A stretch of DNA of 64,000 bases from Gammaproteobacteria bacterium (GCA_004297335.1 SCUD01000069.1:39611-103610); one strand, 5' to 3'; positions 43,064 to 61,995 are shown, counted from the stretch's first letter. Notes: generated by a model from the letters alone, not told the origin. Numbers and translations: made by a program.

Positions 43064-43162
43064 ATGTTCTGGTCCATCTTCTTCGAGAGTCTCGCCCTGA
43101 TCCTGGTGGTGGTCGCTGCTGGCCAGCTGCTGGCGATGCTGCTGCGACGGAGGAAACCCTGA
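43064..43162 (+). CDS. candidate 32-aa single-TM micro-protein (MFWSIFFESLALILVVVAAGQLLAMLLRRRKP)
   Basis: It is below the ORF-track threshold, so I translated it by hand. A GGAG RBS lies 8 nt upstream, starting 13 nt after the SSS stop. Hydrophobic helix plus basic tail. Confidence 0.4.
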   Translation: MFWSIFFESLALILVVVAAGQLLAMLLRRRKP

Positions 43163-44221: not shown

Positions 44222-44239
44222 GCCCGCGAAAACGCCGCC

Positions 44240-45043: not shown

Positions 45044-45060
45044 GCTGCTACCGCGGTCCT

Positions 45061-45900: not shown

Positions 45901-45926
45901 GACTGCTGTCCTCGGGATGGCGGTTG

Positions 45927-45946
45927 GTATAATGGGACCATAATAC
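45927..45946. promoter_or_regulatory. imperfect inverted repeat GTATAATGG-GA-CCATAATAC (contains TATAAT), candidate operator / -10 element
   Basis: 9-bp arms with one mismatch. It lies in the divergent region between the cyclase-IclR unit and the SDR-MFS unit. Confidence 0.25.
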
Positions 45947-46012
45947 GGTACAACTGAACTGTAAAGCGCCATATGATCAGGCCGGCCTGGTCACGCGGCC
46001 GGAGAACGCAGA

Positions 46013-46804
46013 ATGAGCGAAGCGCCGCTCGGCAGGCTTTCGGATCGCCTGGCCGGCAAGGTTGCGATCGTCACCGGCAGCGGCCATGGAATCGGCCAGG
46101 GCTGCGCGCTGATGTTCGCGCGCCATGGCGCCCGCGTGATGGGCTGCGACCTCGACGGCCCGGCCGCGGCGCTGACCGCCGAACGGGCACTGGCCGCCGG
46201 CCTCGAGTGCGCGAGTGTCGCGCCCTGCGACCTGACCCGGCCGGACGAGGTCGCGCGGCTGGTCGCGGCGACGGTGGCCCGCTTCGGGTGCATCGACATT
46301 CTGGTGAACGCTGCGGCCTGGGCCGCCTTCGCACCGATCGAGTCGATGGACTACGAACGCGAATGGCAGCCCACCCTGCGTGCCGAGCTCGATACCGTGT
46401 TCCTGCTGTGCCAGGCGGCCTGGCCACAGCTGAAGGCCAGCGGCCGCGCCTCGATCGTCAACTTTGCCTCGGCCAATGCCCATGGCGTGATGCAGGGTTC
46501 CGCCGCGATCGCGCACTGCGCCGGCAAGGGCGGCATCCTGGCGATGACCCGCCAGCTGGCGATGGAAGGCGCCCCGTTCGGCATCCGTGCGAACACGATC
46601 TCCCCCGGCCTGGTCGTGACCGCGGCAACCCGGCCGGTACTCGCCGATCCGGTATTCCACGCGCGGGCGCTGGCCAAGCACATGGTCAACCGGCTCGGCA
46701 CTCCCGAGGACATCGCCTGGTGCGCGACCTATCTCGCAGCGGACGAGTCCGCCTGGGTCACCGCCGCGGATTTTCCGATCGACGGCGGCACGACGAAGTG
46801 GTGA
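46013..46804 (+). CDS. short-chain dehydrogenase/reductase (SDR)
   Basis: TGSGHGIG cofactor loop, an NAAA variant and YxxxK-like HCAGK context. GGAGA RBS. Confidence 0.8.
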   Translation: MSEAPLGRLSDRLAGKVAIVTGSGHGIGQGCALMFARHGARVMGCDLDGPAAALTAERALAAGLECASVAPCDLTRPDEVARLVAATVARFGCIDILVNAAAWAAFAPIESMDYEREWQPTLRAELDTVFLLCQAAWPQLKASGRASIVNFASANAHGVMQGSAAIAHCAGKGGILAMTRQLAMEGAPFGIRANTISPGLVVTAATRPVLADPVFHARALAKHMVNRLGTPEDIAWCATYLAADESAWVTAADFPIDGGTTKW

Positions 46805-46805
46805 A

Positions 46806-48014
46806 GTGAACACGCGTACCCGGATACTGCCGCGCCTGCCCGGCTGGCTGTGGCTGGTCGCCGCGATGACTGCCATCGGTCCGGTATCCATCGACATGTA
46901 CCTGCCCGGCTTCCCGCTGATCGAGCAGGAGTTCGGCACCGGCGGCGTCGAGCGGACGATGGCGGTCTACCTGTTCGGAATCGCGATCAGTCCGCTGATC
47001 TACGGCCCGCTGAGCGACCGTTTCGGGCGCAAGCCCCCGCTGTATTTCAGCTTCACCCTGTACACGGCCGGTTCAGTCGGCTGCATGCTCGCCGGCAGCA
47101 TGGAGCAGCTGCTGCTGATGCGCATCGTGCAGGCACTGGGCGCCGGTGCGGGCTTTGCGATCGGTCGCGCCATCGTGCGCGACCGCTGCGAGCCGCACGA
47201 GACGGCGCGCGTGTTCTCACTGCTGATGCTGATCTTCAGCCTCGGCCCGATCCTGGCGCCGGGTGTCGGCGGCCTCATCATCGGCTGGTGGGGCTGGCGC
47301 TCGGCGTTCGTGTTCCAGGTGGTGATGGGACTGTCCGTGCTGCTGCTGATGCATCGGGCGCTCGACGAGTCGCGCAACCCGGCGCACGTCGTGCAGCTCA
47401 GCATCCGGGGCGTGGCTGGCAGCTACTGGCGGCTGCTCGGCGACCGCAGCTTCGTCGGCTACGCGCTGATCGGCGGCTTCGGCATGGGCACGACCTTTTC
47501 CTATGTCACCGGAGCCTCCAACGTCATCAGCTCGAGCTACGGACTTTCGCCGCAGAGCCTCGGCCTGCTGCTGGGCCTGAACGGTTTCGCGTTCATGCTC
47601 GCGAGCCGCCTGAACACGCTGGCCCTGCGGCGGATGGGCCCCGCTGAAATCCTGGATCGGGCCTCGATCGGGCCGGTGCTCTGCGCCGCCCTGCTGGTCG
47701 CCGCGACGGCGTTCGTGCAGCCGCCGCTCTGGGCCTTCGTCGCACTGCAGCTGGCGCTGTTCGTTGCGGTCGGGCGGGTCAATCCGAATTCCGGTGCCCT
47801 CGCGCTCGCGCATCACGGCCGCGAGGCCGGCACGGCCTCCGCCCTGCTCGGCTCCATCCAGTCGATGATGGGTACCCTCGCCGGTCTCAATGTCGCGACT
47901 TTCACGAATGGCACGGTCGGCCGGCTCGCCGTGCTGATGGCGATCCCGGCCTCGCTCAGCTGGCTGAGCTACCGGTGGGTCCGGAGTCGAGTCAGTCGAG
48001 ACGGCGGCGAATGA
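46806..48014 (+). CDS. MFS transporter, Bcr/CflA (DHA1) drug-resistance-type
   Basis: IGPVSIDMYLPGFPLIEQEF and GPLSDRFGRKPPL are typical of the Bcr/CflA subfamily. GTG start 2 nt after the SDR stop. Confidence 0.8.
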   Translation: MNTRTRILPRLPGWLWLVAAMTAIGPVSIDMYLPGFPLIEQEFGTGGVERTMAVYLFGIAISPLIYGPLSDRFGRKPPLYFSFTLYTAGSVGCMLAGSMEQLLLMRIVQALGAGAGFAIGRAIVRDRCEPHETARVFSLLMLIFSLGPILAPGVGGLIIGWWGWRSAFVFQVVMGLSVLLLMHRALDESRNPAHVVQLSIRGVAGSYWRLLGDRSFVGYALIGGFGMGTTFSYVTGASNVISSSYGLSPQSLGLLLGLNGFAFMLASRLNTLALRRMGPAEILDRASIGPVLCAALLVAATAFVQPPLWAFVALQLALFVAVGRVNPNSGALALAHHGREAGTASALLGSIQSMMGTLAGLNVATFTNGTVGRLAVLMAIPASLSWLSYRWVRSRVSRDGGE

Positions 48015-48900
48015 CGGTCCAGCGCGGATCCGTGCACAGGGTGCAGGCAGGGCCGGCGAAGTAACTTGCGGCGGCGGGACTCCCGCCCAGCTGCCAGTCG
48101 AGCCAGTGCACGGCGACCGCAGCCCATTCGCCACCGTGGGCCTCCGACCAGAAAGTACCGCTGTGGCCCACGGGCAGCGCACCGAGGAATGCGGGCACGC
48201 GGTCGATGCGCTGCAGGTCGTCGAGCGCATTCGGGTGGGCCATATCGTCGGGACCGCCGGTGAAGTAAGCGATCGGCCCGTGCAGCCTCGCCAGTATTTC
48301 CTTGTCGATCCGGACCCCGCTGCGACCACGGCCACGCACATAGACACCGCTGTTGAACAGGACCGTCGTCGTAATGCGCGGATCCGGTGAAACCGCGAGC
48401 GCCTGCAGCCCGCCGCAGCTGTGTCCCATGACAGCCACGCGAGCGAGGTCCAGTCGACGGTACAGCGACCCACCCGCAGCTGCATTCTCCCGCACGGCCC
48501 AGTCGAGACCCTCGATCACCTGTTCGGGACTGGTCTCATCGGGCTCCAGCCGCTCTGTTGGCGCAGCCACGCCCCGACGTTCACTTCGCGGCCGGCCCAG
48601 CGCGATGACGAAGTATCCATGCGAGGCGATCTCGCGCAGGAATGCGGAATAGCCGAGACCATTGTCCCGACAAGCGCCGTTGCCCCAGAGAACGACCGGC
48701 AGCACCCGATCCGGCAGCTGCAACGGACGGTAGATCGTGTGCCCGGGCAGTTCCTTCCGGTACTCGGCGATCGCCGGCCAGGATCCCGTCCCGGCGGGTT
48801 CACCGACGACGCCCCACGGCGGTACCGGAAGATCGGCCGACGCCACGGCGACCACGAACATTCCGACAGCCAGGCCGCAGCCCCGCAGCCAGCGCTTCAC
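47992..48900 (-). CDS. secreted alpha/beta hydrolase (dienelactone-hydrolase / chlorophyllase-like)
   Basis: Signal-like N-terminus from the GTG at 48900 (VKRWLRGCGLAVGMFVVAVASA) and nucleophile elbow GHSCGG. GTGA overlap with the upstream stop. Confidence 0.65.
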   Translation of the reverse strand: MKRWLRGCGLAVGMFVVAVASADLPVPPWGVVGEPAGTGSWPAIAEYRKELPGHTIYRPLQLPDRVLPVVLWGNGACRDNGLGYSAFLREIASHGYFVIALGRPRSERRGVAAPTERLEPDETSPEQVIEGLDWAVRENAAAGGSLYRRLDLARVAVMGHSCGGLQALAVSPDPRITTTVLFNSGVYVRGRGRSGVRIDKEILARLHGPIAYFTGGPDDMAHPNALDDLQRIDRVPAFLGALPVGHSGTFWSEAHGGEWAAVAVHWLDWQLGGSPAAASYFAGPACTLCTDPRWTVIRRRLD

Positions 48901-50108
48901 GGCTCGCGGCTCGCGGCGGCAAGGACAGCCACGGCTTCCTCCGACGTGTATCCCAGCCATTGCATGATCTCCACGGAGTGCTCGCCGAGCCGTGGCGGCG
49001 CCTCGGCAACCCCCGGCGCCTCGCTCTCCATCTGGAATCCCGCATTGACGATCTCGACCGATTCCCGCTGCGGCAGCCCCGGAATCCTGAGCGGCAGCCG
49101 CAGGCCGCGTTCGCCGAGATGTGGCAGGGAAGCGGCCTCGCCTACCTCGCGGACCATGCCGCAGGGAATGCCGGCAAGACTCATCTCCACCTCCCACTGC
49201 GCGGCGTCCCGCCGGTGCATCTCCCGCTGGACTTCGTCGCGCATCGCCGCCGCATGCAGGCAGCGGGACTCCGGATCCGCGAACCGCGGGTCAGCGAGCC
49301 AGTCCTCACGACCCACAAACCGCGCCAGATCCTCGAACTGATGCTGTTGTACGACACCAAGCGAAACCACCCGCCCGTCCCGCGCCTCGAACAGCGCCGA
49401 AGTCGGCTGGCCGCTGTAGCCCGTGTTGCCCATGCGTGCCAGCGCCTTGCCGGTGACGAGCCACGGCACTACCGCAGAGGTCATGAACGACAGGGTTGCA
49501 TCGAACATCGCAACGTCGATGGTATCCCCGGCACCGGTGCGGCCGCGCCGGACCAGGGCGGTGGCAATCGCGAATGCCGCGGTCTGTCCGGTCAGGGTGT
49601 CCACCACCGGAAACCCGACCCGCATCGGCGGATCGCCGGGATCGCCGCCCAGCGACATCATGCCGCTGGTCGCCTGGACGATATTGTCGATCGCCGGCCA
49701 GTCGCGCAGCGGCCCGGTCTGGCCGTAGCCTGACACCGAGCAATAGATCAGGTCCGGCTTCCAGCGGTGGACCGCCTCCGCACCCAGCCCGAGCCTGGCC
49801 ATCACCCCGGGACGGAAGTTCTCCAGCAGTACATCCGAGCGCTCGATGATCCGCCGGGCGACCTCGTGCTGGCGCGGATCCTTCAGGTCCAGTGCGATCG
49901 ATTTCTTGCCGGCATTGACCGCGATGAACGCCGGCGCCATGCCGTCGTAGCGGCGGTCATTGCCGTAGTAGCGCATCGCGTCGCCGCGGCCCGGCGCCTC
50001 GATCTTGATCACCTCGGCACCCATCAGGCGCAGCAGATGCGACGCAAACGGGCCGGCCATGACATGGCTGAAATCAGCGACCCGGATCCCTTCCAGTGGC
50101 CTCGTCAT
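48897..50108 (-). CDS. family III CoA-transferase (CaiB/BaiF)
   Basis: LEGIRVADFSHVMAGPFASHLLRLMGAEVIKIE is the canonical N-terminus. ATGA overlap with the dctP stop. Confidence 0.85.
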   Translation of the reverse strand: MTRPLEGIRVADFSHVMAGPFASHLLRLMGAEVIKIEAPGRGDAMRYYGNDRRYDGMAPAFIAVNAGKKSIALDLKDPRQHEVARRIIERSDVLLENFRPGVMARLGLGAEAVHRWKPDLIYCSVSGYGQTGPLRDWPAIDNIVQATSGMMSLGGDPGDPPMRVGFPVVDTLTGQTAAFAIATALVRRGRTGAGDTIDVAMFDATLSFMTSAVVPWLVTGKALARMGNTGYSGQPTSALFEARDGRVVSLGVVQQHQFEDLARFVGREDWLADPRFADPESRCLHAAAMRDEVQREMHRRDAAQWEVEMSLAGIPCGMVREVGEAASLPHLGERGLRLPLRIPGLPQRESVEIVNAGFQMESEAPGVAEAPPRLGEHSVEIMQWLGYTSEEAVAVLAAASREP

Positions 50109-51139
50109 CCCTGCTCCTCCCGGCACTCGATGCTGCCATCCCCGCGCACGCTCGCGCGCGCCAGACGGAACACCCGCATGCCATCGATACCGTAGCGTTC
50201 GAGCGCCGCGGCATTGCGTTCCGCGTCGCGCAGGTAAAGCTCATCGAACCGTTCCTGCTCACTGGCCGCGATCGGGATCCGCCGGACTCCCGCCGCGCGC
50301 GCCGCCGCGAAGCCGGTGATGACCGCGGCCCGTGTTTCCTCCGCCAGCGCGCGCTCCCATACCGGAACGGCCGCTGTCAGCAGTTCCCGGTGCTCCGGCC
50401 GCAGGCGTTGCCAGCTCGCCTCCCCCATGGCCCGCGCCGGATAGGCGCCCCGCGGGACGACGAGCTCCGTGTACCAGCGCGTCACCTCGGCGAAATGAAG
50501 CGCACGAAAGGTATCGGCGGGCGCAATCACCCCGTCCAGCACACCCTTGGCCAGCGCTGAATAGACTTCCCCCATCGGCAGGTTCACCGGATCGGCACCG
50601 AGTTCGCGCAGTAAACGCAGCAGTTCCGTCGGGGCCCGGATCCGCAGCCCGCGCAGATCGGACAGGCGCTCGACCGGCCGCTCGCGGGTGATCAGGCCGG
50701 GCAGGCTGCCCCCCTGCACCGCCAGGATCCGCAGCCCGGCAAGTTCCGCGGTGATCTGCGGGCTCGACCGTTCGAGGCAGCGATACATCGCGACCTGGTC
50801 CCCAACGCTCTGCACACCGGTGTAGAACCCGGACTGCGTCCGGATCAAGTGGGCGCCACCTTTTGAGTAGATCGGTGTGATCAGCCCGATATCGGCTACG
50901 CCGTGGCGCAGCTCGATCATCGACTGGTCAGCGGCCAGCAACGCTCCCGACCAGATCGTGCGGATCCGCAGGCTGCCGCCGGATTGCCGCTCCACATGCT
51001 CGATCCAGGTCTGGTCCGCGCGGCTGAAGGGATGCGAGGGAGAATATGGCGTGGCATAGACCAGCTCCGTCACTCCATCCGGCACCGGAGCGGTACAGCC
51101 GGCCAGTGCGCACAGCAGCAGGGGTGCCAGCCGCCTCAT
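50105..51139 (-). CDS. dctP: TRAP transporter substrate-binding protein (DctP family), lipoprotein
   Basis: The start MRRLAPLLLCALAGC carries a lipobox (LAGC). The DctP-like body includes GLRIRAP and GVLDG contexts. Only the last 344 codons of the 786-aa ORF are used. ATGA overlap with the upstream stop. Confidence 0.75.
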   Translation of the reverse strand: MRRLAPLLLCALAGCTAPVPDGVTELVYATPYSPSHPFSRADQTWIEHVERQSGGSLRIRTIWSGALLAADQSMIELRHGVADIGLITPIYSKGGAHLIRTQSGFYTGVQSVGDQVAMYRCLERSSPQITAELAGLRILAVQGGSLPGLITRERPVERLSDLRGLRIRAPTELLRLLRELGADPVNLPMGEVYSALAKGVLDGVIAPADTFRALHFAEVTRWYTELVVPRGAYPARAMGEASWQRLRPEHRELLTAAVPVWERALAEETRAAVITGFAAARAAGVRRIPIAASEQERFDELYLRDAERNAAALERYGIDGMRVFRLARASVRGDGSIECREEQG

Positions 51140-52422
51140 GCCAGTCCCGCACCGCGCAGGAAGTCCGCTACGCTGGCCACCATCGCGTCGTGATTCCAGT
51201 TCTGCGCATCGACCATGTCGGCGTCGAGCGCCAGCACCGGCACGCCGGCGGTCTCGAGCGCCAGCCGGGTCAGTTTCGTGCCCGACTGCGACAGCCGGTT
51301 GTCGGGTGGCACCAGGATCACGGCCGCGTCGATGCCACAGCGCCGCGCCTCGCTGACCATCCATCCGTTCATCCATGGCGGCAGGTGCAGCACCTCGTTC
51401 ATGGAACAGATACGGCTCGCCAGCGCGTCCATCGGCCGGCCACGAATCGCACGGATGTACTGCGGGCCGGCGAATGGCAGGTACATCGACCAGACGAACA
51501 CCGCGCCGAGCCGTTCCTCGAGTGCCTGGTAGAACCCCGGATCGTGCCAGACGCCTGCGCCGATCCACATCAGGCGCAGCCGCTCGTTCGCGGCAGCACC
51601 GACGCCGGCTGCCACGCGGGCGGCGACCTCGTCCCGGAACCGCCGCGCATGGGCTACGGCCCATTCCGAACCGCGATGCCATTGCGGGATCATCGTATTC
51701 GGCATCTGATCGGCGATCGAGACCGGGCATGGCCGGGCTTCGCCGATCATCCGGGAGATCTCGGCGATGTAGCCTTCCTGTTCGTTGATGCGCTCCATCA
51801 GCAGCTGCAACCGCGCCGGGTCGAAGCGCCGGCCGGTCCGCCGCTCCAGCAGCGTGATCAGCTCGCGCATCTCCGCCACCAGCAGCGCGATGCGTTCCGG
51901 CTCGTAAACCTCCTCCCAGTGCTCGTTCGAACGCAGGAACCACTCGGGATCGCGCCGGGTCCAGGCCGGTGCCTCGAGCGGAAAGAACTCCGTGCCAAGC
52001 GCGCTCGCCCACTGGCCAAAGACATGCTGGATGCAGTCGCAGGTCAGCCGCGCGACCAGCAGCGTCGGTGTCGGCAGCCCACCCCATGGTGCAGTCCGCG
52101 GATCGTTCGCGAGCGTACAGGCGAGCCCAAGCGAACAGTACTTGCAGCCGTTCTCCGGGTAGCCGGCATCGGTCATCGCGTCGACGTAGGGTCCTGACAG
52201 CTGCTTGGCGGAGATGTACGCCGACCACCACTGGTTGGTGACCAGCGGAATGTCCATCGCATGGAAGATCTCGTGTGGCGTGTCGGCCTGGGCCACGACG
52301 AACGGTTCGCCCTGCACCACGACGCGCCGCTGCAGATCGGCGGCGAAGGCTTTCTGCCAGGCCGTGGCAGCCGCCGTACAGGCCAGGTCCTTGCGGCTGC
52401 GCTGTCCCTGTGGCTGGTTCAT
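51136..52422 (-). CDS. 2-hydroxyacyl-CoA dehydratase / BcrB-BcrC family subunit
   Basis: 428 aa with family blocks (PHEIFHAMDIPLV, YPENGCKYCSLGLAC, LLVARLTCDCIQHVFGQW). Confidence 0.7.
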   Translation of the reverse strand: MNQPQGQRSRKDLACTAAATAWQKAFAADLQRRVVVQGEPFVVAQADTPHEIFHAMDIPLVTNQWWSAYISAKQLSGPYVDAMTDAGYPENGCKYCSLGLACTLANDPRTAPWGGLPTPTLLVARLTCDCIQHVFGQWASALGTEFFPLEAPAWTRRDPEWFLRSNEHWEEVYEPERIALLVAEMRELITLLERRTGRRFDPARLQLLMERINEQEGYIAEISRMIGEARPCPVSIADQMPNTMIPQWHRGSEWAVAHARRFRDEVAARVAAGVGAAANERLRLMWIGAGVWHDPGFYQALEERLGAVFVWSMYLPFAGPQYIRAIRGRPMDALASRICSMNEVLHLPPWMNGWMVSEARRCGIDAAVILVPPDNRLSQSGTKLTRLALETAGVPVLALDADMVDAQNWNHDAMVASVADFLRGAGLA

Positions 52423-54563
52423 GCGAGCACCCCCGCACTGCCAAGCGCGGCGACCTGCTCCACACTCAGTCCGGCGACATCGCGCAGTATTTCGAGCGTG
52501 TGTTCGCCGAGCCCTGGCGCCCGGTACGGCGCGGGTCGGTCCAGGGACAGGCTGAGCGGCGTACGCACATGGCCGAACTCGCCCAGTTGCGCGTGCGGCA
52601 GACGCACCAGCGCGCCGCGCGCCGCCAGCCCGGGATCGCGCTCGAGCAAGTCCTCGATGTCCTGCACCACCGCAGCGGCGATGCCAGCTTCCTGCAGGAT
52701 ATTCATCAGCCGGGCATCCTCATGTCCTTGCGTCCAGGCACTGATGTCCGTGCCACCGGCGAGTTCGCAGAGTCGTCGCCATTGGTCCTCCGTCCGCGCG
52801 CTGATCGCGATCCAGCGGTCGGCGCCGGCAGCTGGCAATACCTCCTGGAACCGGAACTGCGGATCGGCATTACCCATGCGCTGCAGCCGCTGGCCAGCCT
52901 GTGCGGCCAGGATCGCCGGCAGCATCTGCTGCACGCAGACTTCGTACATGGCCACGTCGATGTACGCGCCGCGACCGGTCTGCCGTCGCTGTTCGAGCGC
53001 AGCGGCCACGCAGGCAGCCATCACGAAGGGCACGATCACATCGCCGTACGGGACTGCGCCGGGGATCACCGGATCGCGATCCGGCCAGCCGGTCATCCAG
53101 GTCCGCCCCGACAATGCGCCGCCCGTGCCATCGACGCCCCACTCCGCGGCGAGCGGCCCGTCCTGGCCATACACGCTGCCCGAGACCATCACGACACCCG
53201 GGTTGCGCGCGGCGATCTGCTCGTAGTCGAGACCCAGTTTCGCCATCGTTCCCGGGGAGAAGTTCTCGACGACGACATCCGCCTGGTCGAGCAGCGGCAG
53301 GATCGCTGCGCGGGCCTCAGGTCGCTTCAGGTCCAGGGCCAGGCTGCGCTTCGAGGTGTTCAGATGCGCGAACCAGGGCTTGTCGTCGAAGGATCCGGCC
53401 TGGGATGCACTGACCTGGACATCGATGCGCGACAGGCAGGGACGCGAACGGCTCTCGACCTTGATGACGTCTGCACCCAGGTCGCCGAGGGTCTTGGTCG
53501 TGATCGAACCGACCAGCGCCCAGGAGAAATCGAGCACCCGGATGCCGGCGAGTGGTCCAGGCCGGGTCGCATCACGCGCAGCCGGCGCGACCTTCGAGGC
53601 TCCCGTACGGAGGCGTGCGAAGCGCGCCGGGTGCCGTGACCCACGCTCCTCCTGCCAGAATCCGCGCGCCTCGAGATGCCGGTCGGCGAGCACGTCTGCC
53701 GGTTCCGCGACGACGCAGGCGTTGATCCCGCGCCGGCGGCCCTCGCCGGCGATATCGGCCCGGCTGCGCGTCATGAAGAAGGCCGCCAGCGCCGCTTCCC
53801 ATGCGGCCCTCGTTGCCGCCGGCAGCGTGGAGCGGTTGTAGCGCAGCCAGTCGATACCGGCGAGCGGATTCGGCAGCCCCGCCTCGTCGATCCAGTCCGC
53901 CAGCGCCTGGTTCGCCGGCGCGCCGAAGCGCCCGCTCATCAGCGAATGGAAGCACCAGCCATCCGCCAGCCGCCAGATGCAACGGACGATCGCCTGGCCG
54001 TAGTTCAGGGCGGACCCGACCCGGTGCAGCTTGCGCCGATCGAACTGCCAGACCAGGATGCCGTTGACGTTGCGGTTGAACGCCACCTCCTGGATCGACA
54101 CGTCGACGTGCTGGCCGGAGCCGTGGCGCCCGCGCGCATGGTGCGCGGCCATCGCCCCGGCGGCCGCCACCATCTCGGCATGAAAGCCACAGGCATCGAG
54201 TGCTTCGCGGACCGGCGCGCGATCGGGCTCGCCGGTCAGTCGCAGGGTTCCGCCCATCGCCGAGGCGACCAGTTCGCTGCCCTGCCAGCCGGCGCGCGGG
54301 CCGCCGCTGCCGAACGGCGTGACCGACGCATGGATGATCCGCGGATTCACGGCCTCGAGGTGCGGCCGGGACCATCCGCGCGCTGCCAGTGCATCGAGGC
54401 CGAGGTCTTCGATCAGGAACGAAGCGCCGGCAAGAGCGGGAGACAGGCCGGCCTCACAGGCATGCGCAGTCACCTCGGCCCCGAGCGACTCGAGGAACCG
54501 CGCCAGCGGCCGCTCCGCCATCGTGCCCAGGGCGATCACGCCATGTCCGGCCAGCGGTTTCAT
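52419..54563 (-). CDS. tandem (two-domain) family III CoA-transferase fusion
   Basis: 714 aa. The second half starts with the canonical LAGIRVLDFSWALVGSITTKTLGDLGADVIKVE. The first half is a more divergent CaiB-like repeat (GVIALGTMAERPLARFLESLGAEV...VTPFGSGGP). Confidence 0.75.
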   Translation of the reverse strand: MKPLAGHGVIALGTMAERPLARFLESLGAEVTAHACEAGLSPALAGASFLIEDLGLDALAARGWSRPHLEAVNPRIIHASVTPFGSGGPRAGWQGSELVASAMGGTLRLTGEPDRAPVREALDACGFHAEMVAAAGAMAAHHARGRHGSGQHVDVSIQEVAFNRNVNGILVWQFDRRKLHRVGSALNYGQAIVRCIWRLADGWCFHSLMSGRFGAPANQALADWIDEAGLPNPLAGIDWLRYNRSTLPAATRAAWEAALAAFFMTRSRADIAGEGRRRGINACVVAEPADVLADRHLEARGFWQEERGSRHPARFARLRTGASKVAPAARDATRPGPLAGIRVLDFSWALVGSITTKTLGDLGADVIKVESRSRPCLSRIDVQVSASQAGSFDDKPWFAHLNTSKRSLALDLKRPEARAAILPLLDQADVVVENFSPGTMAKLGLDYEQIAARNPGVVMVSGSVYGQDGPLAAEWGVDGTGGALSGRTWMTGWPDRDPVIPGAVPYGDVIVPFVMAACVAAALEQRRQTGRGAYIDVAMYEVCVQQMLPAILAAQAGQRLQRMGNADPQFRFQEVLPAAGADRWIAISARTEDQWRRLCELAGGTDISAWTQGHEDARLMNILQEAGIAAAVVQDIEDLLERDPGLAARGALVRLPHAQLGEFGHVRTPLSLSLDRPAPYRAPGLGEHTLEILRDVAGLSVEQVAALGSAGVLA

Positions 54564-55609
54564 CGCTCCAGGCTCCCCAACCAGGCGCCGATCTCATCGG
54601 CAGCACCATCCGCCGCATCCCAGCGACGACGGGTCATCACCAGGCAGCTGAGTCCGGCGGCCCCGAGCGCTGCACGCTGTGCCGGGACATGCCAGGCGGG
54701 CGCCTCGTCCTCCTCGATGAGCCACAGGATCACGGCATCCGCCCGGATCCGCCGGGCCTCGGCCGTGAGTGCCGTGGCACGATCCACGAAGGCCCGGGAA
54801 CCGACCGTGCTGCTCCAGGCATGCCGGCCGATCGCTGCGGCGGGATCGTCAACGGCATCCGCGATCTCAGGACCCAGGCGTAGCAGCGAAAGGTCCCCGG
54901 CCTCGCCCATCACTGACCAGCCGGCTGCCTCGACGGCACGATGCAGGCGATCGTCCGGTGGCATTGAACCGGCCAGCAACACCCGCCCGCGCGCCGGCGT
55001 AGCCTGCGTCGGTGGCGCGACAGCAGCCTCCGGCAGCGGCGCAAACAGGCTCGCCCGTGCGACGCGCTCGTAGTGGCTGCCCGGTGCCTGGCGTGATGCA
55101 TCCAGCGTCGCAAACCAGCGGCGCCGCTGGTTGGCCAGCCCGATGCCCCGCCGCAAGGCAGCGTCGTCGATGCCGAGACGGGCGGCCAACCTGCGCACGG
55201 CGGCGATGGTGTGCGCGAGGCTGGTCGCGCGCGGGATCCTGGCGAGATCGAAGACCAGCGGCTCCGGCCCGCCAATCTGTCCTTGCCGCTGCAGCTCGCA
55301 GACGTAGTAGTACAGGCGCTGGGCACTGTCGTCGCCGCGCGAGAAGATCACGCACTCCAGGAAATCGAAGCGTCCGTTCGCCCAGTCCTCCAGCACGCAC
55401 CGGGTCCACGGCGCGAAGCTCGATTCGAGCCAGCGATCGGCCGTGGGGGTTGGACGATCCGCATCCCACGGCAGGTGGCAGACCAGGCGACCGGAGGCCA
55501 TCAGCAGGTCCTCCGGAATATCGAGGCCGGCATAGCCGATGGCCGGGCCAGCGGCCCGGGCCCGGGCCAGCGGATCAGCGAGAATCGAGGCAACAGGGTC
55601 GTCAGTCAC
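54560..55609 (-). CDS. divergent 2-hydroxyacyl-CoA dehydratase-family subunit (partner candidate)
   Basis: The layout resembles HgdA/B-BcrB/C proteins (IGYAGLDIPEDLLMASG, FLECVIFSRGDD, C-terminal AVILWL...). It is weaker than the other members. The GTG at 55609 has a GGGAG RBS and lies 2 nt after the dctM stop. The ATG at 55639 is an alternative. Confidence 0.5.
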   Translation of the reverse strand: MTDDPVASILADPLARARAAGPAIGYAGLDIPEDLLMASGRLVCHLPWDADRPTPTADRWLESSFAPWTRCVLEDWANGRFDFLECVIFSRGDDSAQRLYYYVCELQRQGQIGGPEPLVFDLARIPRATSLAHTIAAVRRLAARLGIDDAALRRGIGLANQRRRWFATLDASRQAPGSHYERVARASLFAPLPEAAVAPPTQATPARGRVLLAGSMPPDDRLHRAVEAAGWSVMGEAGDLSLLRLGPEIADAVDDPAAAIGRHAWSSTVGSRAFVDRATALTAEARRIRADAVILWLIEEDEAPAWHVPAQRAALGAAGLSCLVMTRRRWDAADGAADEIGAWLGSLER

Positions 55610-55611
55610 GT

Positions 55612-56919
55612 TCAGCTCCCCAGCCAGGCCGGCAGCCACAGCGCCAGCGCCGGAAACAGGATCAACAGCAGCAGATGGATGAGATCGGCACCCAGGAAAG
55701 GCAGCACACCACGAAAAATCTGCGCCAGTGGTACGTCACGGGCGATCCCCTGGATGACGTAGAGATTCATGCCCACCGGCGGATGGATGAAGCCGATTTC
55801 CATCGCCCGCACGAGGAAGATGCCAAACCAGATCGGTGACAGGCCAAGTCCCTGGATGATCGGCAGCAGGATCGGCGTGGTCAGCAGCATCAGGGCCAGG
55901 CCGTCGAGAACCGATCCCAGCAGCAGCAGCAACAAGGCGATCAGCAGGACTGTGACCAGCGGCGAGGCACCCAGTCCTCCGATCAGTGCGCCGGCGGCCG
56001 CGGGTAGTCCGGTCACGGCGATGAACACCGAGAACAGCAGTGCGCCGATGACCACCACATAGATCAGTCCACTGGTGCGCAGGGTGTCCTCGAAGGCCGC
56101 CTGCAGTGTCGCCAGGCTCAAGCGGCCGCGCCAGGCTGCAATCAGGAGCGCGCCGCCCGCGCCCACGGCGGCCGCCTCGGTTGGCGTGAACCAGCCGAGC
56201 GCAATGCCGCTGATGACGCCCAGCATCAGCAGGAGCACATCACCGACGCGGCCGAGCGCAGCCCAGCGCTCGGCCCAGCTGGCGCGTTCCGTCTGCGGTG
56301 CGATCTGCGGGCGCAACCGCACGAGGATCCAGATCGTGATGAAATAGCCGAGCATCTGCGTCAGCCCGGGCACGATGGCCGCGGTGAACAGCCGGCCGAT
56401 GGACTGCTCGGCGACGATGCCGAAGACGATCAGCGCGCCAGAGGGCGGAATCATCTGACCGAGCGTGCCCCCGGCTGCCACGGCCCCGGTCGCCAGCGCA
56501 TCCGAGTAGCCGCGCCGCCGCATTTCCGGCAGCGCCACCATGCCGATGGTCGCCGCGGTCGCCAGGCTCGAACCGTTGATCGCACCAAAGGCCGCGCAGC
56601 CACCGATCGACGAGAGCGCCAGCCCGCCGCGCCGGTGGCCGAGCCAGCGCGCCGCGGCATCGAACAGGTCGCGGCTGGCATTGGCGGAGAAACACAGGTG
56701 CGCCATCAGCAGGAACAGTGGCAGGGTGCCGAGTTCATACCGGATCAGGGTATCGAACAGCACAACACCCGACTTGATCAGCGCCGGCTCGAGGCCGATG
56801 ACGAGTGCGAGACCGCCGCAGCCGACCAGACCCAGGGCCACGCCCACCGGCATGCCGAGCAGCAGCAGCACCAGCAGCAGCAGCACACCGAGCAGACCGG
56901 TCGCCGGCGACGCTATCAC
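55612..56919 (-). CDS. dctM: TRAP transporter large permease (DctM)
   Basis: Polytopic protein with DctM-like motifs (LLLLGMPVGVALG, LPLFLLMAH, INGSSLATAATIG). The GTG at 56919 overlaps the dctQ stop (GTGA). Confidence 0.85.
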   Translation of the reverse strand: MIASPATGLLGVLLLLVLLLLGMPVGVALGLVGCGGLALVIGLEPALIKSGVVLFDTLIRYELGTLPLFLLMAHLCFSANASRDLFDAAARWLGHRRGGLALSSIGGCAAFGAINGSSLATAATIGMVALPEMRRRGYSDALATGAVAAGGTLGQMIPPSGALIVFGIVAEQSIGRLFTAAIVPGLTQMLGYFITIWILVRLRPQIAPQTERASWAERWAALGRVGDVLLLMLGVISGIALGWFTPTEAAAVGAGGALLIAAWRGRLSLATLQAAFEDTLRTSGLIYVVVIGALLFSVFIAVTGLPAAAGALIGGLGASPLVTVLLIALLLLLLGSVLDGLALMLLTTPILLPIIQGLGLSPIWFGIFLVRAMEIGFIHPPVGMNLYVIQGIARDVPLAQIFRGVLPFLGADLIHLLLLILFPALALWLPAWLGS

Positions 56920-57359
56920 CGGTGCCGCTCCCGGAATGCCAGCCGCAGAAACAGCAGCGCCGTACCGAGCACCGCACCGATCGCGAGGATCCGCAGCGGT
57001 CGGTAACCGATGCGCAGCAGTTCGGTTTCCTCGTGGCCGGACCACAGCTCACTGGCGATCCAGATGCTGCCTGCGGCCAGGGCGCAGAAGAACAGCACGG
57101 CACCGCCGTAATTCACGCGCTGCAGCCAGGCCCGGGCCCGCGGTCCCACCCGGTCGAGCAGCAGGTGCACCATCGCGTGCCGCCCCGCGATCGTCGCCAG
57201 CACAATCGAGGTCGATGCCGACACCAGCACCGCGGCCTGGACCAGCTCGATCGAACCGAGAAGCGGAACTCCGATGTAACGGCCCAGGACGGCGGCGAGC
57301 TCGGTGCCCGTCGCGACCAGCAGTGCCCCGCCGCCCAGCATCGTCAGCAGGCGCTGCAT
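56916..57359 (-). CDS. dctQ: TRAP transporter small permease (DctQ)
   Basis: 147 aa, four hydrophobic segments, positioned directly before dctM. Confidence 0.7.
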   Translation of the reverse strand: MQRLLTMLGGGALLVATGTELAAVLGRYIGVPLLGSIELVQAAVLVSASTSIVLATIAGRHAMVHLLLDRVGPRARAWLQRVNYGGAVLFFCALAAGSIWIASELWSGHEETELLRIGYRPLRILAIGAVLGTALLFLRLAFRERHR

Positions 57360-58507
57360 GAAACCCCCACCATATCCGCACGCGGCTCGAACTGGAGAGC
57401 CGGCAGGCCCGCCGCGAGCGTGATCCGGGCCACATAGTCGCAGACCTGGGCGGCGCGCCCTGCACCGGCCAGCACCGGCTGCCCGGGCGGCTCCACGAAC
57501 ACCGGCACGAAACCGGACTCGATGCGACCATCCGGGTGCCAGAGCAGGCGACCGAGCATCGAGTGCACCGCCTCGGGATGAAACGGCGCGAGTTCATAGG
57601 CCGGATCGGGTTCGAATCCGAACAGTTCGCGGCGCCGCCGCGACCACTCCGCGCGGGCCGGATGGTCCTGGTTGCTGCTGAAGGCGCGGGTCACGACACA
57701 GCCGTTGCCGAGCCCATGGTAAATCGGGCGCCCGCGGTGGAACTCGATGCCGCGGAGGATATGCGCGTGATGGCTGATCACCACATCCGCCCCGGCATCG
57801 ATCGCGGCCTGCGCCAGCGGTCGCTCGTAAGTGGCCAGTCGCGCCGGCGTGTGCACGATGCCCTTGTGCAACGCGACGATCACCAGCTCGGCCTTGGCCC
57901 GGACCGCGGCTATGTCGGAGTGCAGCATTCCGACCGCCGCGGCGGCGGGCACGGTCAGTGGCGCCAGTGGCCGCACCGGGCTGCCATCCCCGGTGAGAAT
58001 CGGCAGATATGCGCAGCCCGGTTGCCCAGCCGTCGCCCACGCGGCCTCGGGACCTACGCAGTTGTAGCTCAGCACGGCAACTCGACGGTCACCACAGTGT
58101 GTCATCGCAGCGGCACGAGCTGCAGTCAGGTTGGCCCCGGCACCGGCATGCCCGATACCCAGCCGATCGAGACGATCGATCGTCTGCCGGATCCCCTCGG
58201 CGCCGCAGTCCGCAATGTGGTTTCCCGCCAGCGTCAGCACCCGGAACCCGGCGCGCGCCGCCGCATCGAGATTCTCCGGATCGGCCCCCGGAGCCGGGAC
58301 GTCGCCGACCAGCTCGTCCCCTCCATGGCAATGCGGGACTTCCAGGTGACCGATCGCGAGGTCGGCACCATGGATCGCCGGGGCGATGCCACTCAGCCAG
58401 TAGTCGGCATCCGCCACGTCGAGCACGAGGTCGCCACTGAACAGAATGCTGGCGGCACCCGCTCCGGCGTTATCCCGACCCGGATTGTTGACAGAATGGT
58501 TGATCAT
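57344..58507 (-). CDS. CapA/PgsA-like metallophosphatase-fold protein
   Basis: ILFSGDLVLD, GHLE, LAGNHIADCG, ISHHAH and the YHGLGN context match the PGA_cap family. The ATG at 58507 is the first in-frame start after the divergent regulator region. Confidence 0.7.
   Translation of the reverse strand: MINHSVNNPGRDNAGAGAASILFSGDLVLDVADADYWLSGIAPAIHGADLAIGHLEVPHCHGGDELVGDVPAPGADPENLDAAARAGFRVLTLAGNHIADCGAEGIRQTIDRLDRLGIGHAGAGANLTAARAAAMTHCGDRRVAVLSYNCVGPEAAWATAGQPGCAYLPILTGDGSPVRPLAPLTVPAAAAVGMLHSDIAAVRAKAELVIVALHKGIVHTPARLATYERPLAQAAIDAGADVVISHHAHILRGIEFHRGRPIYHGLGNGCVVTRAFSSNQDHPARAEWSRRRRELFGFEPDPAYELAPFHPEAVHSMLGRLLWHPDGRIESGFVPVFVEPPGQPVLAGAGRAAQVCDYVARITLAAGLPALQFEPRADMVGVSCSAC
58484..58496. 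promoter_or_regulatory. ATTGTTGACAGAA motif copy 1 (candidate GntR operator and/or -35 element)
   Basis: It lies in the divergent capA / gntR start region, 28 nt upstream of the GTG at 58524. It shares ATTGTTGACA with the copies at 62035 and 63867. Confidence 0.4.
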
Positions 58508-58523
58508 ACGCGACAGTGGCTCA

Positions 58524-59246
58524 GTGAAAGTCCAGGCCAACACCAAGAAGAAATCCGCGACTCCGCGACCTGGCAGCCCCGGACACCGGATCCGTCGCGG
58601 GCCAGCGGTACGGACCCCGGCCGTCATTGACTGGATCCGGGAGAAAATCCGCGTCGGCCGGCTGGTACCCGGCCAACGCCTCGTCGAAGCCGATATTACT
58701 GCTGCAACCGGCGCCAGCCGCAGCCGGGTTCGCGAGGCCCTGCAGCGACTCGAGACCGAGGGGCTGGTCGAGATCGAGGAGTTTCGCGGTGCCTCCGTCA
58801 AGCGCTACAGCTGGGACGAGGTTCGCCAGATCTACCTGGCACGCATGGCGCTCGAGGGCCTGGCTGCCGGCGAATTCGCTGCCGCAGGAGCCGCGGCAGC
58901 CAAGCACCGGCTGGTGGAAATCCAGGAAGAACTGAACCAGTGGGAGCATACCGGTAATCACGAACGCTTCGCGCGCCTCAATGCTGCCTGGCACGATCTC
59001 ATCATCGACAGCGCGGGCAACGAATACGTCCGCCAGTTCCTTACCCGCCTCACCGTGCCGATCTATCGTTTCCTGTTTGCCACGATGTACAGCACGCAGC
59101 GCATCGACTCCGCGAACGCCGATCATCGGCGCATCACCTCGGCCATCGTCGCCGGTGATGCCGCGTCCGCCGAACAGGAAATGCGCGCACACATCCGGCA
59201 TGGGCTCGAAGCCCTCGGCGAGGTCGACGCCGGATTCCACAGCTGA
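58524..59246 (+). CDS. GntR family (FadR/FCD subfamily) transcriptional regulator
   Basis: Winged helix (RLVPGQRLVEADITAATGASRSRVREALQRLETEGLVE) plus an FCD-like helical C-domain. The start is uncertain. I chose the GTG at 58524 because the ATG at 58446 would overlap the divergent capA start. Confidence 0.75.
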   Translation: MKVQANTKKKSATPRPGSPGHRIRRGPAVRTPAVIDWIREKIRVGRLVPGQRLVEADITAATGASRSRVREALQRLETEGLVEIEEFRGASVKRYSWDEVRQIYLARMALEGLAAGEFAAAGAAAAKHRLVEIQEELNQWEHTGNHERFARLNAAWHDLIIDSAGNEYVRQFLTRLTVPIYRFLFATMYSTQRIDSANADHRRITSAIVAGDAASAEQEMRAHIRHGLEALGEVDAGFHS

Positions 59247-59295: not shown

Positions 59296-61995
59296 TCAGA
59301 ATGACTTGCGCACGCTGATCATGAATGAGCGCCCGATCGGACTCGCGGCGGCGGCATCGTAACCGCCGCTGCCGTTGCCGCTCGGCGCGATGTTGACATA
59401 CGGCGGGCCCTCGTCGAACAGGTCGCGGATCTCGGCATCCAGCGCCAAGCCGGACAACAGCGGCGAACCGGCACCAACCGGCTGCCAGGTGACACCGAGA
59501 TCGAGCGGCATATAGCTCGAGACCTGCTGGTTCGGCGTAATCGCGTTGTTGGTGTAGCCGCCGACATAGTTGGCGCGCAGCCGCACCCGCCACGGCTCGC
59601 GGCTCCAGGTCACGCCGGCGCGGGCCTTGAACTCATTTGGCTGGAAGATGGTATCGAGACGGTCGACCAGTGTGCCGGTCGGCGTTACCGAGACTTCGTA
59701 CTTGTTCAGCCAGGTACCACTCAGGCTGAAAGCGAACGTCCCTGCCCCGGCGGTGTGCAACCTCCAGAGGGCCTGGAAATCGACGCCCTGCATCAGCGAA
59801 CGGCCCAGATTGTTGTTGCGACCATCGACCGCCAGCGTGACGTTGTTCGGATCATTGCCCGGAAACGTTCCGCGCGCCAGCTGCACACCCTGTGACAGCA
59901 GGTACAGGACCCAGTCGCGGGCCTCGGTGCCACGCTTGATGATGCCGGTACCCTCGAATTCGCCCTCGCGCAGCAGGATCGCCAGGTCGGACAGGTAGGC
60001 CTCCACCTGGTCCTTGTACTCGATGTCGAACCAGGTCAGGCTGAGGTCGAGGTCCGGCAGCGGCGACCAGTCGACACCCAGCGTCCAGGTCGTGGCCTCC
60101 TCCGGCCCGAGGTTGAGGTTGACACCCGAATTGGCGACGCCCACCAGCGGTGCGCCGCCAGCCGGGTCTTGGTAGTTCTGCACGAACAGCGAGTTGCTGT
60201 TGCCGTAGATCTGCGAAATCAGCGGCGCGCGGAACGACGTGCCGTAGCTGCCGCGGAAGCTCAAGCCATCGGTTGGCGACCAGGTGATGCCGAACTTCGG
60301 GTTGCTCGTGTCGCCGACATCGCTGTAGTCGTCGTAGCGGACAGCTGCGGTCAGGTCGAGGCGCTGCAGTCCGGGCCGGGCATTGCCGGCGCCGAACAAC
60401 GGCACCAGGAGCTCAATGTAGGCGGAATCGACCTGCCGGGCAAAATCCCGGTACCGAATCGCGCTGCCCGGATTGCCGCGGCCGAGACCGAGCCCGACCG
60501 TCTGTTCCTGGCCCTCGTAGCCGGCCGCCAGCCGCACGGCACCACCGGGTAACTCGAGCACCGCACCATTGACCCGCAGCTCATAGCCGGTGAATCGGTT
60601 CAGGGTTGGCGCGAGGTAGATCTGGTCGCTGATCGCCGCGAGCGTCGCCGCCGAGGTGCGGCCGAGGCCGTACGGGTCGAAGGCCGTCGCCGGATCACCG
60701 CTGGCCAGCGCCGCCGCCAGCGCCGGGTTGTCGATTCCACGCCAGCTCGCCGAGTCGTCGTGGTTACGGCCATAGCCAAACAGCGCCTCGAGCTGCCAGT
60801 CGCGCGGCAACCGGACGCGGACGCCCGGCGTCAGCTGCCAGCTCCGGGCAAAGCCGGACTGCGTGTCAAGCGGCAGGTCGTCGGCGAAGCTGTAGTCGAT
60901 CTGGTACGAGCTCCCGACGAAGCCCGGCGGCGCGACGAAGAAGGCGTTGCTCGCCGGCACCGCCAGGGTCACGGCCACCGCCGCGGGATTGCGCACGAAT
61001 TCGCGCCGGCTGAAGAAACCGTCGGCGAACAGCTCGACGCTGTCGCTGATCGACTGCGTCAGCGTCAGGCTGACCGAGTCGTACTCCTGCTCCGGGAACA
61101 GGTCCTGGCCGGGTGCGACCTCGCACAGGTTGCTGGTCCCGGGCTGCAGGCTGGCGGCATTGGCCGCGGTCAGGCCACCGGCCGGGATCGCATAGCTGGT
61201 CGTACCGACGCGCAGCGTGCCCGGGTTGCAGCGGGTCATGCGGTAGTCGTTACCGCCAAAGGCCCGCTGGTCCGCGGTGAAGAAACTCCGGTCATCGCCG
61301 CTCAGGTTGGAGCGGTAGGCATGCTCGTAGGCGAGCATGAACTGCCCGCGCTCCCAGATCTTGCCGAAGGCCGCGCCGGCCTGGTATTCATCGAAGCCGC
61401 TGGCATCCGAGGCGCCGTAGCGGGCGAACACCTCAAGGCCATCGAGGCTGCGCCGCGGAATCAGGTTGACCACCCCGGCCACCGCATCCGAACCGTAGAT
61501 CGCCGAAGCGCCGTCGGCGACTACCTCGACCCGTTCCAGGCCCAGCGTCGGCAGCACCGACGGGTCGATCGAACGGCTGTTGCTGATGACGCGGTGGCCA
61601 TCGATCAGGACCAGCGTCGCATACGGACCGATGCCGCGCAGGTTGACACTATTGCCATAGACGATGTTGCCGGCGCCGCCTGGCTGCCCGCGCGAATTCT
61701 CGCTGACGCCGAGGTCGAAGACCTGCGGGATCTCCTTGATCAGGCGGTCGGTCGAGGCCGCGGTCGACAGGTCGATGTCCTGACGGCCTAGCGCGATCAT
61801 CGCCGAGCCGACCGGCGCCGAGCCGCGCACCCGCGTGCCTGTCACGATGATCTCGCTCAAGGCCGACCCGGCCCCTGGCGCATCAGTAGCCTGATCCTGG
61901 GCGAAGGCCGGACCAGCCGTCGCGACGACCAGCAGGCCGGTGCAGCCCAGCAGTTGCGGGCGCCGGCCCGTTCCCTTGATTTGGCGCAGTTTCAT
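59296..61995 (-). CDS. TonB-dependent outer-membrane receptor
   Basis: Signal peptide, plug-domain start (SEIIVTGTR), NLRGIGPYATLVLIDGHR, a long beta-barrel with alternating pattern and a C-terminal aromatic residue (RKSF). Confidence 0.9.
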   Translation of the reverse strand: MKLRQIKGTGRRPQLLGCTGLLVVATAGPAFAQDQATDAPGAGSALSEIIVTGTRVRGSAPVGSAMIALGRQDIDLSTAASTDRLIKEIPQVFDLGVSENSRGQPGGAGNIVYGNSVNLRGIGPYATLVLIDGHRVISNSRSIDPSVLPTLGLERVEVVADGASAIYGSDAVAGVVNLIPRRSLDGLEVFARYGASDASGFDEYQAGAAFGKIWERGQFMLAYEHAYRSNLSGDDRSFFTADQRAFGGNDYRMTRCNPGTLRVGTTSYAIPAGGLTAANAASLQPGTSNLCEVAPGQDLFPEQEYDSVSLTLTQSISDSVELFADGFFSRREFVRNPAAVAVTLAVPASNAFFVAPPGFVGSSYQIDYSFADDLPLDTQSGFARSWQLTPGVRVRLPRDWQLEALFGYGRNHDDSASWRGIDNPALAAALASGDPATAFDPYGLGRTSAATLAAISDQIYLAPTLNRFTGYELRVNGAVLELPGGAVRLAAGYEGQEQTVGLGLGRGNPGSAIRYRDFARQVDSAYIELLVPLFGAGNARPGLQRLDLTAAVRYDDYSDVGDTSNPKFGITWSPTDGLSFRGSYGTSFRAPLISQIYGNSNSLFVQNYQDPAGGAPLVGVANSGVNLNLGPEEATTWTLGVDWSPLPDLDLSLTWFDIEYKDQVEAYLSDLAILLREGEFEGTGIIKRGTEARDWVLYLLSQGVQLARGTFPGNDPNNVTLAVDGRNNNLGRSLMQGVDFQALWRLHTAGAGTFAFSLSGTWLNKYEVSVTPTGTLVDRLDTIFQPNEFKARAGVTWSREPWRVRLRANYVGGYTNNAITPNQQVSSYMPLDLGVTWQPVGAGSPLLSGLALDAEIRDLFDEGPPYVNIAPSGNGSGGYDAAAASPIGRSFMISVRKSF

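Follow-up and report, generated by a model that had tools for sequence, protein, structure and literature searches.

Proteins of the HGD-D superfamily (Pfam PF06050) are textbook examples of oxygen-sensitive enzymes that rely on an archerase, an electron injector driven by ATP, and comprise the 2-hydroxyacyl-coenzyme A (CoA) dehydratases, the class I benzoyl-CoA reductases and the double-cubane proteins. In the Clostridium systems of phenyllactate dehydratase (FldABC with FldI) and (R)-2-hydroxyisocaproyl-CoA dehydratase (HadBC with HadA and HadI), a family III CoA-transferase is encoded together with an alpha/beta pair of HGD-D subunits. In the class I benzoyl-CoA reductase BzdNO, the BzdO subunit carries a [4Fe-4S]-OH2 cluster on Cys95, Cys128 and Cys380, adjoining Glu65 and His131, and BzdN holds an [8Fe-9S] cluster by six Cys (PMC11971306). 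Here we describe a nine-gene operon on the minus strand (47992-58507) of a 64,000-nucleotide (nt) stretch of DNA from a Gammaproteobacteria bacterium (GCA_004297335.1, SCUD01000069.1:39611-103610), called the window below. It encodes a small HGD-D subunit of 349 amino acids (aa; gene hgdS) and a large one of 428 aa (hgdL), a tandem and a single-domain family III CoA-transferase (caiB2x and caiB), a CapA-like protein, a tripartite ATP-independent periplasmic (TRAP) transporter (dctPQM) and a secreted hydrolase (hyd). By fold and Pfam score the pair belongs to the HGD-D superfamily, yet it falls short of the features that define the two characterised enzyme families, and it does not depend on an activator encoded nearby.

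The likeness in composition to FldABC and HadA-HadBC, on which the first-pass annotation of this DNA had built its reading, turned out to be real. As in the radical dehydratases, there are two homologous subunits of the HGD-D fold, and their predicted folds map one-to-one, the large subunit on MbdO, BzdO and HadB and the small one on HadC and BzdN. Both the sequence and the structure of the large subunit find their best matches in the class I benzoyl-CoA reductases BzdNO and MbdON (PDB 8s02, 9g87; PMC11971306). Unlike the Fld and Had systems, the operon has no activator ATPase, its beta-type subunit has no conserved Cys, and in its alpha-type subunit both the third Cys ligand and the conserved Glu are missing. 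The CoA-transferase is moreover tandem-fused, genes for a TRAP transporter, a CapA-like protein and secreted hydrolases are coupled to those of the enzymes, and the hosts are mostly aerobic Proteobacteria. A full-text literature search recovered no paper on this combination of genes, and one for MbdO likewise found nothing.

A conserved operon without an activator ATPase

As first annotated, the operon has no activator gene: no ATPase of the BcrAD/HgdC type (PF01869) is encoded inside 47992-58507. Three ATPases with both bridging-cluster Cys are found elsewhere in the window (Table 1), and we used them as tblastn queries over 1.5 Mb of orthologous loci and the loci of a sister clade (see below). 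No activator ATPase was found within 10 kb in the 80 orthologous and 86 sister-clade loci, a result that covers those neighbourhoods and not the rest of the genomes; the best chance match had E = 0.075. As a positive control, the queries recovered each other in the window with 27-32 % identity and E ≤1e-12. The first-pass annotation had left two options, an activator supplied in trans, with the gene at 22695-23612 as the only free candidate, or function without ATP-driven activation. The second is now the better supported and the first less so; the candidate is not free, as it overlaps by 4 nt with an upstream HadB-like gene of its own.

Regarding conservation, it had been suggested to follow the synteny across genomes, and it does recur. 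We scanned a genome collection with one genome per species, in which 254 species encode close relatives of the 428-aa protein, and retrieved 80 orthologous loci for comparison. Close relatives of this protein number more than 2,300, and the best 120 are all 76-82 % identical, many of them from sphingomonads. All eight core genes, that is all except hyd, are present in 56 of the 59 loci of at least 19 kb, the first seven being collinear on one strand. The conserved order across the 80 loci is capA-dctQ-dctM-hgdS-caiB2x-hgdL-dctP-(hyd)-caiB, and the public annotation of the Sphingomonas and Novosphingobium loci agrees with it. The hydrolase gene hyd is accessory, with a tblastn match in 44 of the 80 loci, sometimes outside the operon, and in Novosphingobium it lies between dctP and caiB. 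Upstream, homologues of a TonB-dependent receptor and of a CocE/NonD-family hydrolase occur in 59 and 43 of the 80 loci, respectively, and a homologue of the divergent GntR/FCD regulator, found in 22 loci, has the same position in Sphingomonas. No further catabolic enzyme recurs beyond these parts in the flanks of the orthologous and sister-clade loci.

Carriers of the operon include Sphingomonas, Sphingobium, Novosphingobium, relatives of Erythrobacter, Asticcacaulis, Emcibacter, Steroidobacteraceae and other Gammaproteobacteria, mostly aerobic Proteobacteria of soil and water. In a Sphingomonas locus, an alternative oxidase and a flavohaemoglobin are encoded a few kb from the operon. No other protein of the operon is as well conserved as the hgdL product, the median identity of which to its orthologues is 77 %. 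This speaks for purifying selection. The hgdS product is among the least conserved (median 45 %). The operon is a real conserved unit under such selection; a decaying remnant made of pseudogenes is ruled out by the 73-81 % identity of the hgdL product across classes. The whole operon resides on megaplasmids of 0.6-1.2 Mb in Novosphingobium sp. EMRT-2 (pABRDHK22), PP1Y, THN1 and ES2-1 and in Croceicoccus marinus. This location, together with the ~77 % identity of the large subunit between Alpha- and Gammaproteobacteria, is compatible with horizontal transfer, and a spread of the operon by this route would fit the comparison.

The gene calls and family assignments of the nine minus-strand genes were in agreement with our Pfam profile search, in which the first eight exceed the gathering scores. 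The junctions, read directly from the sequence, are also as previously described, with an overlap of 16 nt between capA and dctQ, six overlaps of 4 nt (ATGA or GTGA) and a gap of 2 nt between dctM and hgdS when the GTG at 55609 is taken as the start of hgdS. This start is supported by the orthologues, the products of which are 348-352 aa long. The alternative start would indeed overlap dctM by 28 nt, but its codon, at 55639, is GTG and not ATG as had been stated. The G+C content is 65-71 % across the window, and a scan for promoters and terminators gave nothing beyond the expectation from shuffled sequence. At the other end of the operon, hyd converges with a major facilitator superfamily transporter gene (46806-48014, plus strand); their 3' ends overlap by 23 nt (47992-48014), with no terminator-like site in between.

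The HGD-D pair and its relatives

The AlphaFold2 model of the small subunit has a predicted local distance difference test (pLDDT) score of 91, and Foldseek aligned it to HadC with a template modelling (TM) score of 0.82 and to BzdN with 0.80. No Cys is conserved in the 75 orthologues: four Cys are found in less than 15 % of them, and Cys104 in 89 %. The positions aligned to Cys36 and Cys73 of BzdN are occupied by Gly and Ala, and the six cluster Cys of BzdN have no conserved counterpart. Having no conserved Cys, the small subunit has no electron-entry cluster. It offers neither the Cys-ligated [4Fe-4S] cluster that the beta-subunit of a radical dehydratase has of its own, nor the six-Cys [8Fe-9S] or equivalent cluster of the N/C subunit of a class I benzoyl-CoA reductase, and a BzdPQ-type ATPase module is missing from the operon.

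The large subunit has MbdO as its closest solved relative in sequence searches (1.9e-12), followed by BzdO. Foldseek placed its predicted model in the TM range 0.65-0.68, next to MbdO (0.68), BzdO and HadB (0.68). Cys93 and Cys128 correspond to Cys95 and Cys128 of BzdO. At the position of the third canonical ligand, Cys380 of BzdO, there is an invariant Asn375; Gln64 stands where BzdO (Glu65), MbdO and HadB have the catalytic Glu, and Ile is found three residues after Cys128, where BzdO has His131. The subunit thus shows neither the three-Cys, open-iron [4Fe-4S] arrangement of the radical dehydratases, Cys96 and Cys130 being extra, nor the full set of BzdO ligands, of which it keeps two of the three Cys. 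The canonical redox apparatus of the pair is largely dismantled. Lack of the cluster-binding Cys had been named in advance as the finding that would speak against a radical enzyme, and it holds for the most part, completely for the small subunit and for the third ligand of the large one.

The Cys that remain in the large subunit are strongly conserved. Cys93, 96, 102, 128, 130, 232 and 362 are present in 99-100 % of 81 sequences, and Cys15 and Cys339 in 93-94 %; because of this conservation, a metal cluster is likely in the orthologue group of the operon. Cys96 also occurs in relatives further away, which have kept the third canonical Cys, and Cys130 is peculiar to the orthologue group. From this pattern it is likely that Cys130 replaced the lost ligand, giving a four-Cys cluster without open iron. 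Confidence in the model is low at 91-106, 233-244 and 374-380, which correspond to the loops of Cys93/96/102, the residues after Cys232 and the surroundings of Asn375, as would be expected of a cofactor pocket modelled without its cofactor. We also considered a double-cubane protein. This was ruled out for the pair by an NF040772 score of 22.5 bits against a cut-off of 350 and by the lack of conserved Cys in the small subunit.

Among 1.8 billion cluster representatives, we found 141 relatives with E ≤1e-30. In many of them, a small and a large HGD-D domain are fused into one protein of 750-845 aa, which indicates that the two HGD-D proteins act together, and several have no Cys at all. Seeding a metagenome scan with six sequences of this sister clade, we obtained 80 loci with 62 complete open reading frames (ORFs), 52 of them fused. 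No Cys is found at positions 93, 128 and 375 in 59 of the 62 ORFs; the residues there are Glu/Asp, Ser/Thr and a deletion, respectively. There is little or no variation at Gln64, Trp65, Trp66, Trp248, His249 and Arg250. The fused protein, of ~790 aa and without the cluster Cys (e.g. in the metagenome loci L092 and L104), is encoded with DctQ-DctM-DctP, one or two CoA-transferases, often a CapA-like protein, a TonB receptor and an S15 hydrolase. This gene cluster has the appearance of a paralogous pathway that acts on a related substrate. Still more remote members of the clade, whether they have Cys or not, adjoin PGA_cap, CoA_transf_3 and an esterase. The clade is therefore defined by the motifs NQWW, APWGGLP, PQWHRG and LHLPPW and by its gene partnership, not by an Fe-S cluster. 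On one metagenome contig (L085, gene 1551-3116), a relative with 46 % identity to the 428-aa protein adjoins a family I CoA-transferase (CoA_trans/Mal_decarbox_Al) and DctQ; the type of transferase is thus not fixed across the clade.

Partner proteins, putative pathway and alternatives

Both CoA-transferases belong to family III, with CoA_transf_3 scores of 396.8 and 377.5 bits against a cut-off of 23.3. The N-terminal half of the 714-aa tandem protein matches chain A and its C-terminal half chain B of PDB 9fn0, the succinyl-CoA:(R)-benzylsuccinate CoA-transferase BbsEF, so the protein resembles a fused pseudo-heterodimer of a BbsE-like and a BbsF-like subunit. Unlike in BbsEF, both would here be one polypeptide, and its gene lies between the two HGD-D genes. 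The C-terminal half has a conserved WGVDGTG motif with the Asp, the N-terminal half a G.E..SA motif with Glu in its place, and the single-domain CaiB has a conserved D..QA..G motif, with the Asp within AIDNIVQA. The conserved Asp may be the catalytic residue that forms the acyl-aspartyl anhydride; going by the motif and not by a structure-based alignment, it would stand at the position of Asp169 of Frc.

The CapA-like protein is without a signal peptide and has MslH (8gq9, 6.5e-20) as its closest relative of solved structure. The equivalents of MslH Glu44, Asn87, His88, Asp91, His259 and His295 are present and conserved across 68 orthologues; Asp11 and His261 are outside the part covered by the alignment. 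The protein has the PGA_cap domain with the metal ligands and His/Asp dyads of MslH-like proteins, and it scores far below the cut-off of the MslH equivalog (95 against 700 bits). MslH is a Ca(II)-dependent epimerase of lasso-peptide biosynthesis that takes the alpha-proton off the C-terminal residue, a Trp (PMC10406935). By this likeness, we propose that the CapA-like protein may be an alpha-carbon epimerase of a free acid. It differs from MslH in its context, which is catabolic and not that of the biosynthesis of a ribosomally synthesised and post-translationally modified peptide, and its substrate is probably a small free acid.

The transporter has all parts of a TRAP system, the Q and M membrane subunits and a DctP-type binding protein, each above its Pfam threshold. 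The solved solute-binding proteins closest to DctP are 4n6d, 4nap and 4pgn. Presumably 4pgn and TarP-type proteins bind aromatic acids. The ligand of 4nap is a D-amino acid according to the published paper. The hyd product matches a Pseudomonas mendocina lipase (2fx5, 8e-19) and PETase-like chains (1e-18), and carries a signal peptide; its G-x-S-C-G-G nucleophile elbow and four of its Cys are conserved. The CocE/NonD hydrolase encoded upstream matches cocaine esterase structures (4e-19), and its N-terminus reads as a signal peptide.

Taken together, we see about an even chance that the pair represents an activator-independent, probably non-radical branch of HGD-D proteins, which would convert a CoA thioester supplied by the BbsEF-like fused transferase in the catabolism of a carboxylate derived from an ester. 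In such a pathway, a conjugate would be taken up via the TonB-dependent receptor, and its ester or amide bond would be cleaved outside the cytoplasm, in the periplasm, by the secreted CocE/NonD-type and lipase/cutinase-like hydrolases. The free carboxylic acid would then be imported by DctPQM, the configuration of its alpha-carbon possibly adjusted by the MslH-like CapA protein, and its CoA thioester made by a family III CoA-transferase. A complex of the BbsEF-like fused transferase and the small and large HGD-D subunits would transform the thioester. The pair descends from the superfamily of 2-hydroxyacyl-CoA dehydratases and benzoyl-CoA reductases and would have abandoned the ATP-driven injection of electrons. 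Catalysis would probably rest on the clade-specific residues of NQWW, PQWHRG and LHLPPW; the core reaction might be of an acid-base or Lewis-acid hydro-lyase type, and the Cys-rich site of the orthologue group is probably a fully Cys-ligated, dispensable metal cluster. The second CoA-transferase might recycle the CoA. Among these steps, only the activator independence of the core step rests on direct evidence. The first-pass annotation saw the novelty in radical chemistry that proceeds without an activator; it is likely instead that the branch has left the radical, activator-dependent mechanism altogether.

Several points weigh against this interpretation. The three-protein complex and the type of the core reaction are predictions. 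The model of the large subunit has a pLDDT of 68, lowest in the Cys loops, and the seven plus two conserved Cys, which make a metal cluster likely, also leave a redox role possible. Moreover, the window comes from an anaerobic degrader of aromatic compounds, in which three ATPases of the archerase type are encoded within 35 kb, and the scan of the carriers for activators was confined to the loci around the operon.

The presence of these ATPases, all bona fide and with both bridging-cluster Cys, would also suit a classical radical 2-hydroxyacyl-CoA dehydratase of the FldABC/HadBC type that is activated in trans, here by the 22695-23612 product or by BcrA/BcrD. Such an enzyme would explain the FldABC-like composition, a family III CoA-transferase with an alpha/beta HGD-D pair, and why the large subunit retains two canonical Cys plus several more. 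We nevertheless regard it as improbable. For the cluster that its counterparts HadC and BzdN carry beside the ATPase, the small subunit offers no conserved Cys; the large subunit has other residues in place of the third Cys ligand and the catalytic Glu, the 166 related loci have no ATPase within 10 kb, their carriers are mostly sphingomonads and other aerobes, and the activase in question is translationally coupled to its own HadB-like gene. Only a slim chance is also given to a large subunit with a redox-active Fe-S cluster, which would receive electrons from ferredoxin or NAD(P)H via a partner and catalyse an ATP-free reductive step, either a dehydroxylation or the reduction of an aromatic or enoyl thioester. 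The closest solved relatives, being substrate-binding subunits of benzoyl-CoA reductases, the seven to nine conserved Cys and the position of the operon within an aromatic-degradation island in this window would be in line with it. However, no gene for a redox partner recurs in the 166 loci, the Cys-free sister proteins have identical gene partners, and the carriers are aerobes.

It is likewise doubtful, if somewhat easier to conceive, that the pair is no enzyme at all and serves as a structural or substrate-channelling partner of the fused transferase, or as a sensor, the chemistry being left to the CoA-transferases and the CapA-like protein. The loss of the canonical catalytic features, the interleaving of the HGD-D genes with the transferase gene and the absence of any other recurring catabolic enzyme in the clusters could be understood in this way. 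Against it, conservation within the operon is highest in the large subunit, the invariant polar and aromatic motifs NQWW and PQWHRG are typical of an active site, and CoA transfers combined with epimerisation give no net conversion.

Genomic surroundings and significance

The features of the operon and its surroundings are listed in Table 1. Regarding the GntR/FCD regulator, its true start is probably ~130 nt 3' of the first ATG.

Table 1. Genes of the operon and other features of the window, with the matches on which their assignment is based.
Feature	Position	Strand	Description
capA	57344-58507	-	Pfam PGA_cap 1.5e-50, 172.5 bits; cytoplasmic, MslH-like calcineurin fold
dctQ	56916-57359	-	TRAP small permease; Pfam DctQ 1.5e-12
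dctM	55612-56919	-	TRAP large permease; Pfam DctM 8.6e-96; TIGR00786 321.7 bits (cut-off 268)
hgdS	54560-55609	-	Small HGD-D subunit (beta/N type), 349 aa; Pfam HGD-D 1e-10, 42.2 bits (cut-off 28.4)
caiB2x	52419-54563	-	Tandem family III CoA-transferase, 714 aa; CoA_transf_3 1.3e-118 in three stretches
hgdL	51136-52422	-	Large HGD-D subunit (alpha/O type), 428 aa; Pfam HGD-D 5.2e-48, 164.8 bits (cut-off 28.4)
dctP	50105-51139	-	TRAP solute-binding lipoprotein; Pfam DctP 2.1e-23; lipobox LAGC
caiB	48897-50108	-	Single-domain family III CoA-transferase; CoA_transf_3 9.4e-113, full length
hyd	47992-48900	-	Secreted alpha/beta hydrolase, lipase/cutinase/PETase-like; weak Pfam matches; accessory operon member
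GntR/FCD regulator, divergent	58446-59246	+	Pfam GntR and FCD domains
TonB-dependent outer-membrane receptor	59296-61995	-	Pfam Plug and TonB_dep_Rec_b-barrel
CocE/NonD-family (S15) hydrolase, secreted	62086-63831	-	Upstream transcription unit; NCBIfam TIGR00976 CocE_NonD 221.8 bits (cut-off 66.3)
HgdC-type activase	22695-23612	-	1hux match 1.4e-32; both bridging-cluster Cys aligned; TIGR00241 above cut-off
HadB-like HGD-D gene	23609-24793	-	Full Cys triad; 4-nt overlap with the HgdC-type activase
BcrA/BcrD-type ATPases of benzoyl-CoA reductase	33502-34485 and 34356-35849	-	Thauera-type complex
AMP-binding CoA ligase	31708-33477
TetR regulator	38192-38992

The window carries further genes for the degradation of aromatic compounds. 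A complete class I benzoyl-CoA reductase of the Thauera type is encoded at 33502-38262 on the minus strand; subunits C, B and D score above the cut-offs of their NCBIfam equivalogs and A just below (553 against 578 bits). An operon-like run at 17244-28912, also on the minus strand, contains Fer2, molybdenum cofactor (MoCo) and flavin adenine dinucleotide (FAD) subunits resembling 4-hydroxybenzoyl-CoA reductase, the HadB-like HGD-D protein with the HgdC-type activase, a ferredoxin, a thioesterase, a 2-oxoacid:ferredoxin oxidoreductase and a pyridine-nucleotide-disulphide oxidoreductase. The occurrence of a lone alpha-type HGD-D protein with an activase of its own beside a molybdoenzyme is unusual. 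Directly adjoining the operon is a phloroglucinol-type degradation set (39752-46804) with two short-chain dehydrogenases/reductases, a 3-hydroxyacyl-CoA dehydrogenase-like gene, an SSF symporter, a BKACE protein and a Cyclase-family protein. The BKACE protein scores 514.6 bits with the NCBIfam equivalog for 3,5-dioxohexanoate:acetyl-CoA acetone transferase (cut-off 430). This set does not recur in the other loci.

Enzymes that exist in both Fe-S-dependent and Fe-S-independent forms are known from the fumarases and the serine dehydratases, an analogy for the proposed non-radical conversion. With the balance tipping slightly to the contrary, the NQWW/PQWHRG clade may be a previously unrecognised class of enzymes, which would combine a nitrogenase-like HGD-D fold and an optional Fe-S cluster with no ATPase. 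In oxic cells, it would form the core of a new CoA-dependent pathway for ester-derived acids, in which a fused CoA-transferase and an MslH-like epimerase take part. Put more sharply, this idea would have the Cys-rich orthologues perform a ketyl-type dehydration in aerobes, using a self-contained cluster and no archerase.

In the RefSeq annotation, the names of the operon genes are generic and the small subunit is a 'hypothetical protein'. Labels such as 'benzoyl-CoA reductase subunit B' or '2-hydroxyacyl-CoA dehydratase' are, in these lineages, no sign of anaerobic metabolism of aromatic compounds or amino acids and should be read with caution. With its TonB receptor, secreted esterases, TRAP transporter, CoA-transferases and putative CapA-like epimerase, the operon would mark a widespread catabolic pathway of soil and freshwater. 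For the family, a conserved branch in aerobic Alpha- and Gammaproteobacteria, with no neighbouring ATPase and with Cys-free relatives, suggests that the HGD-D fold may have been recruited for a different chemistry.

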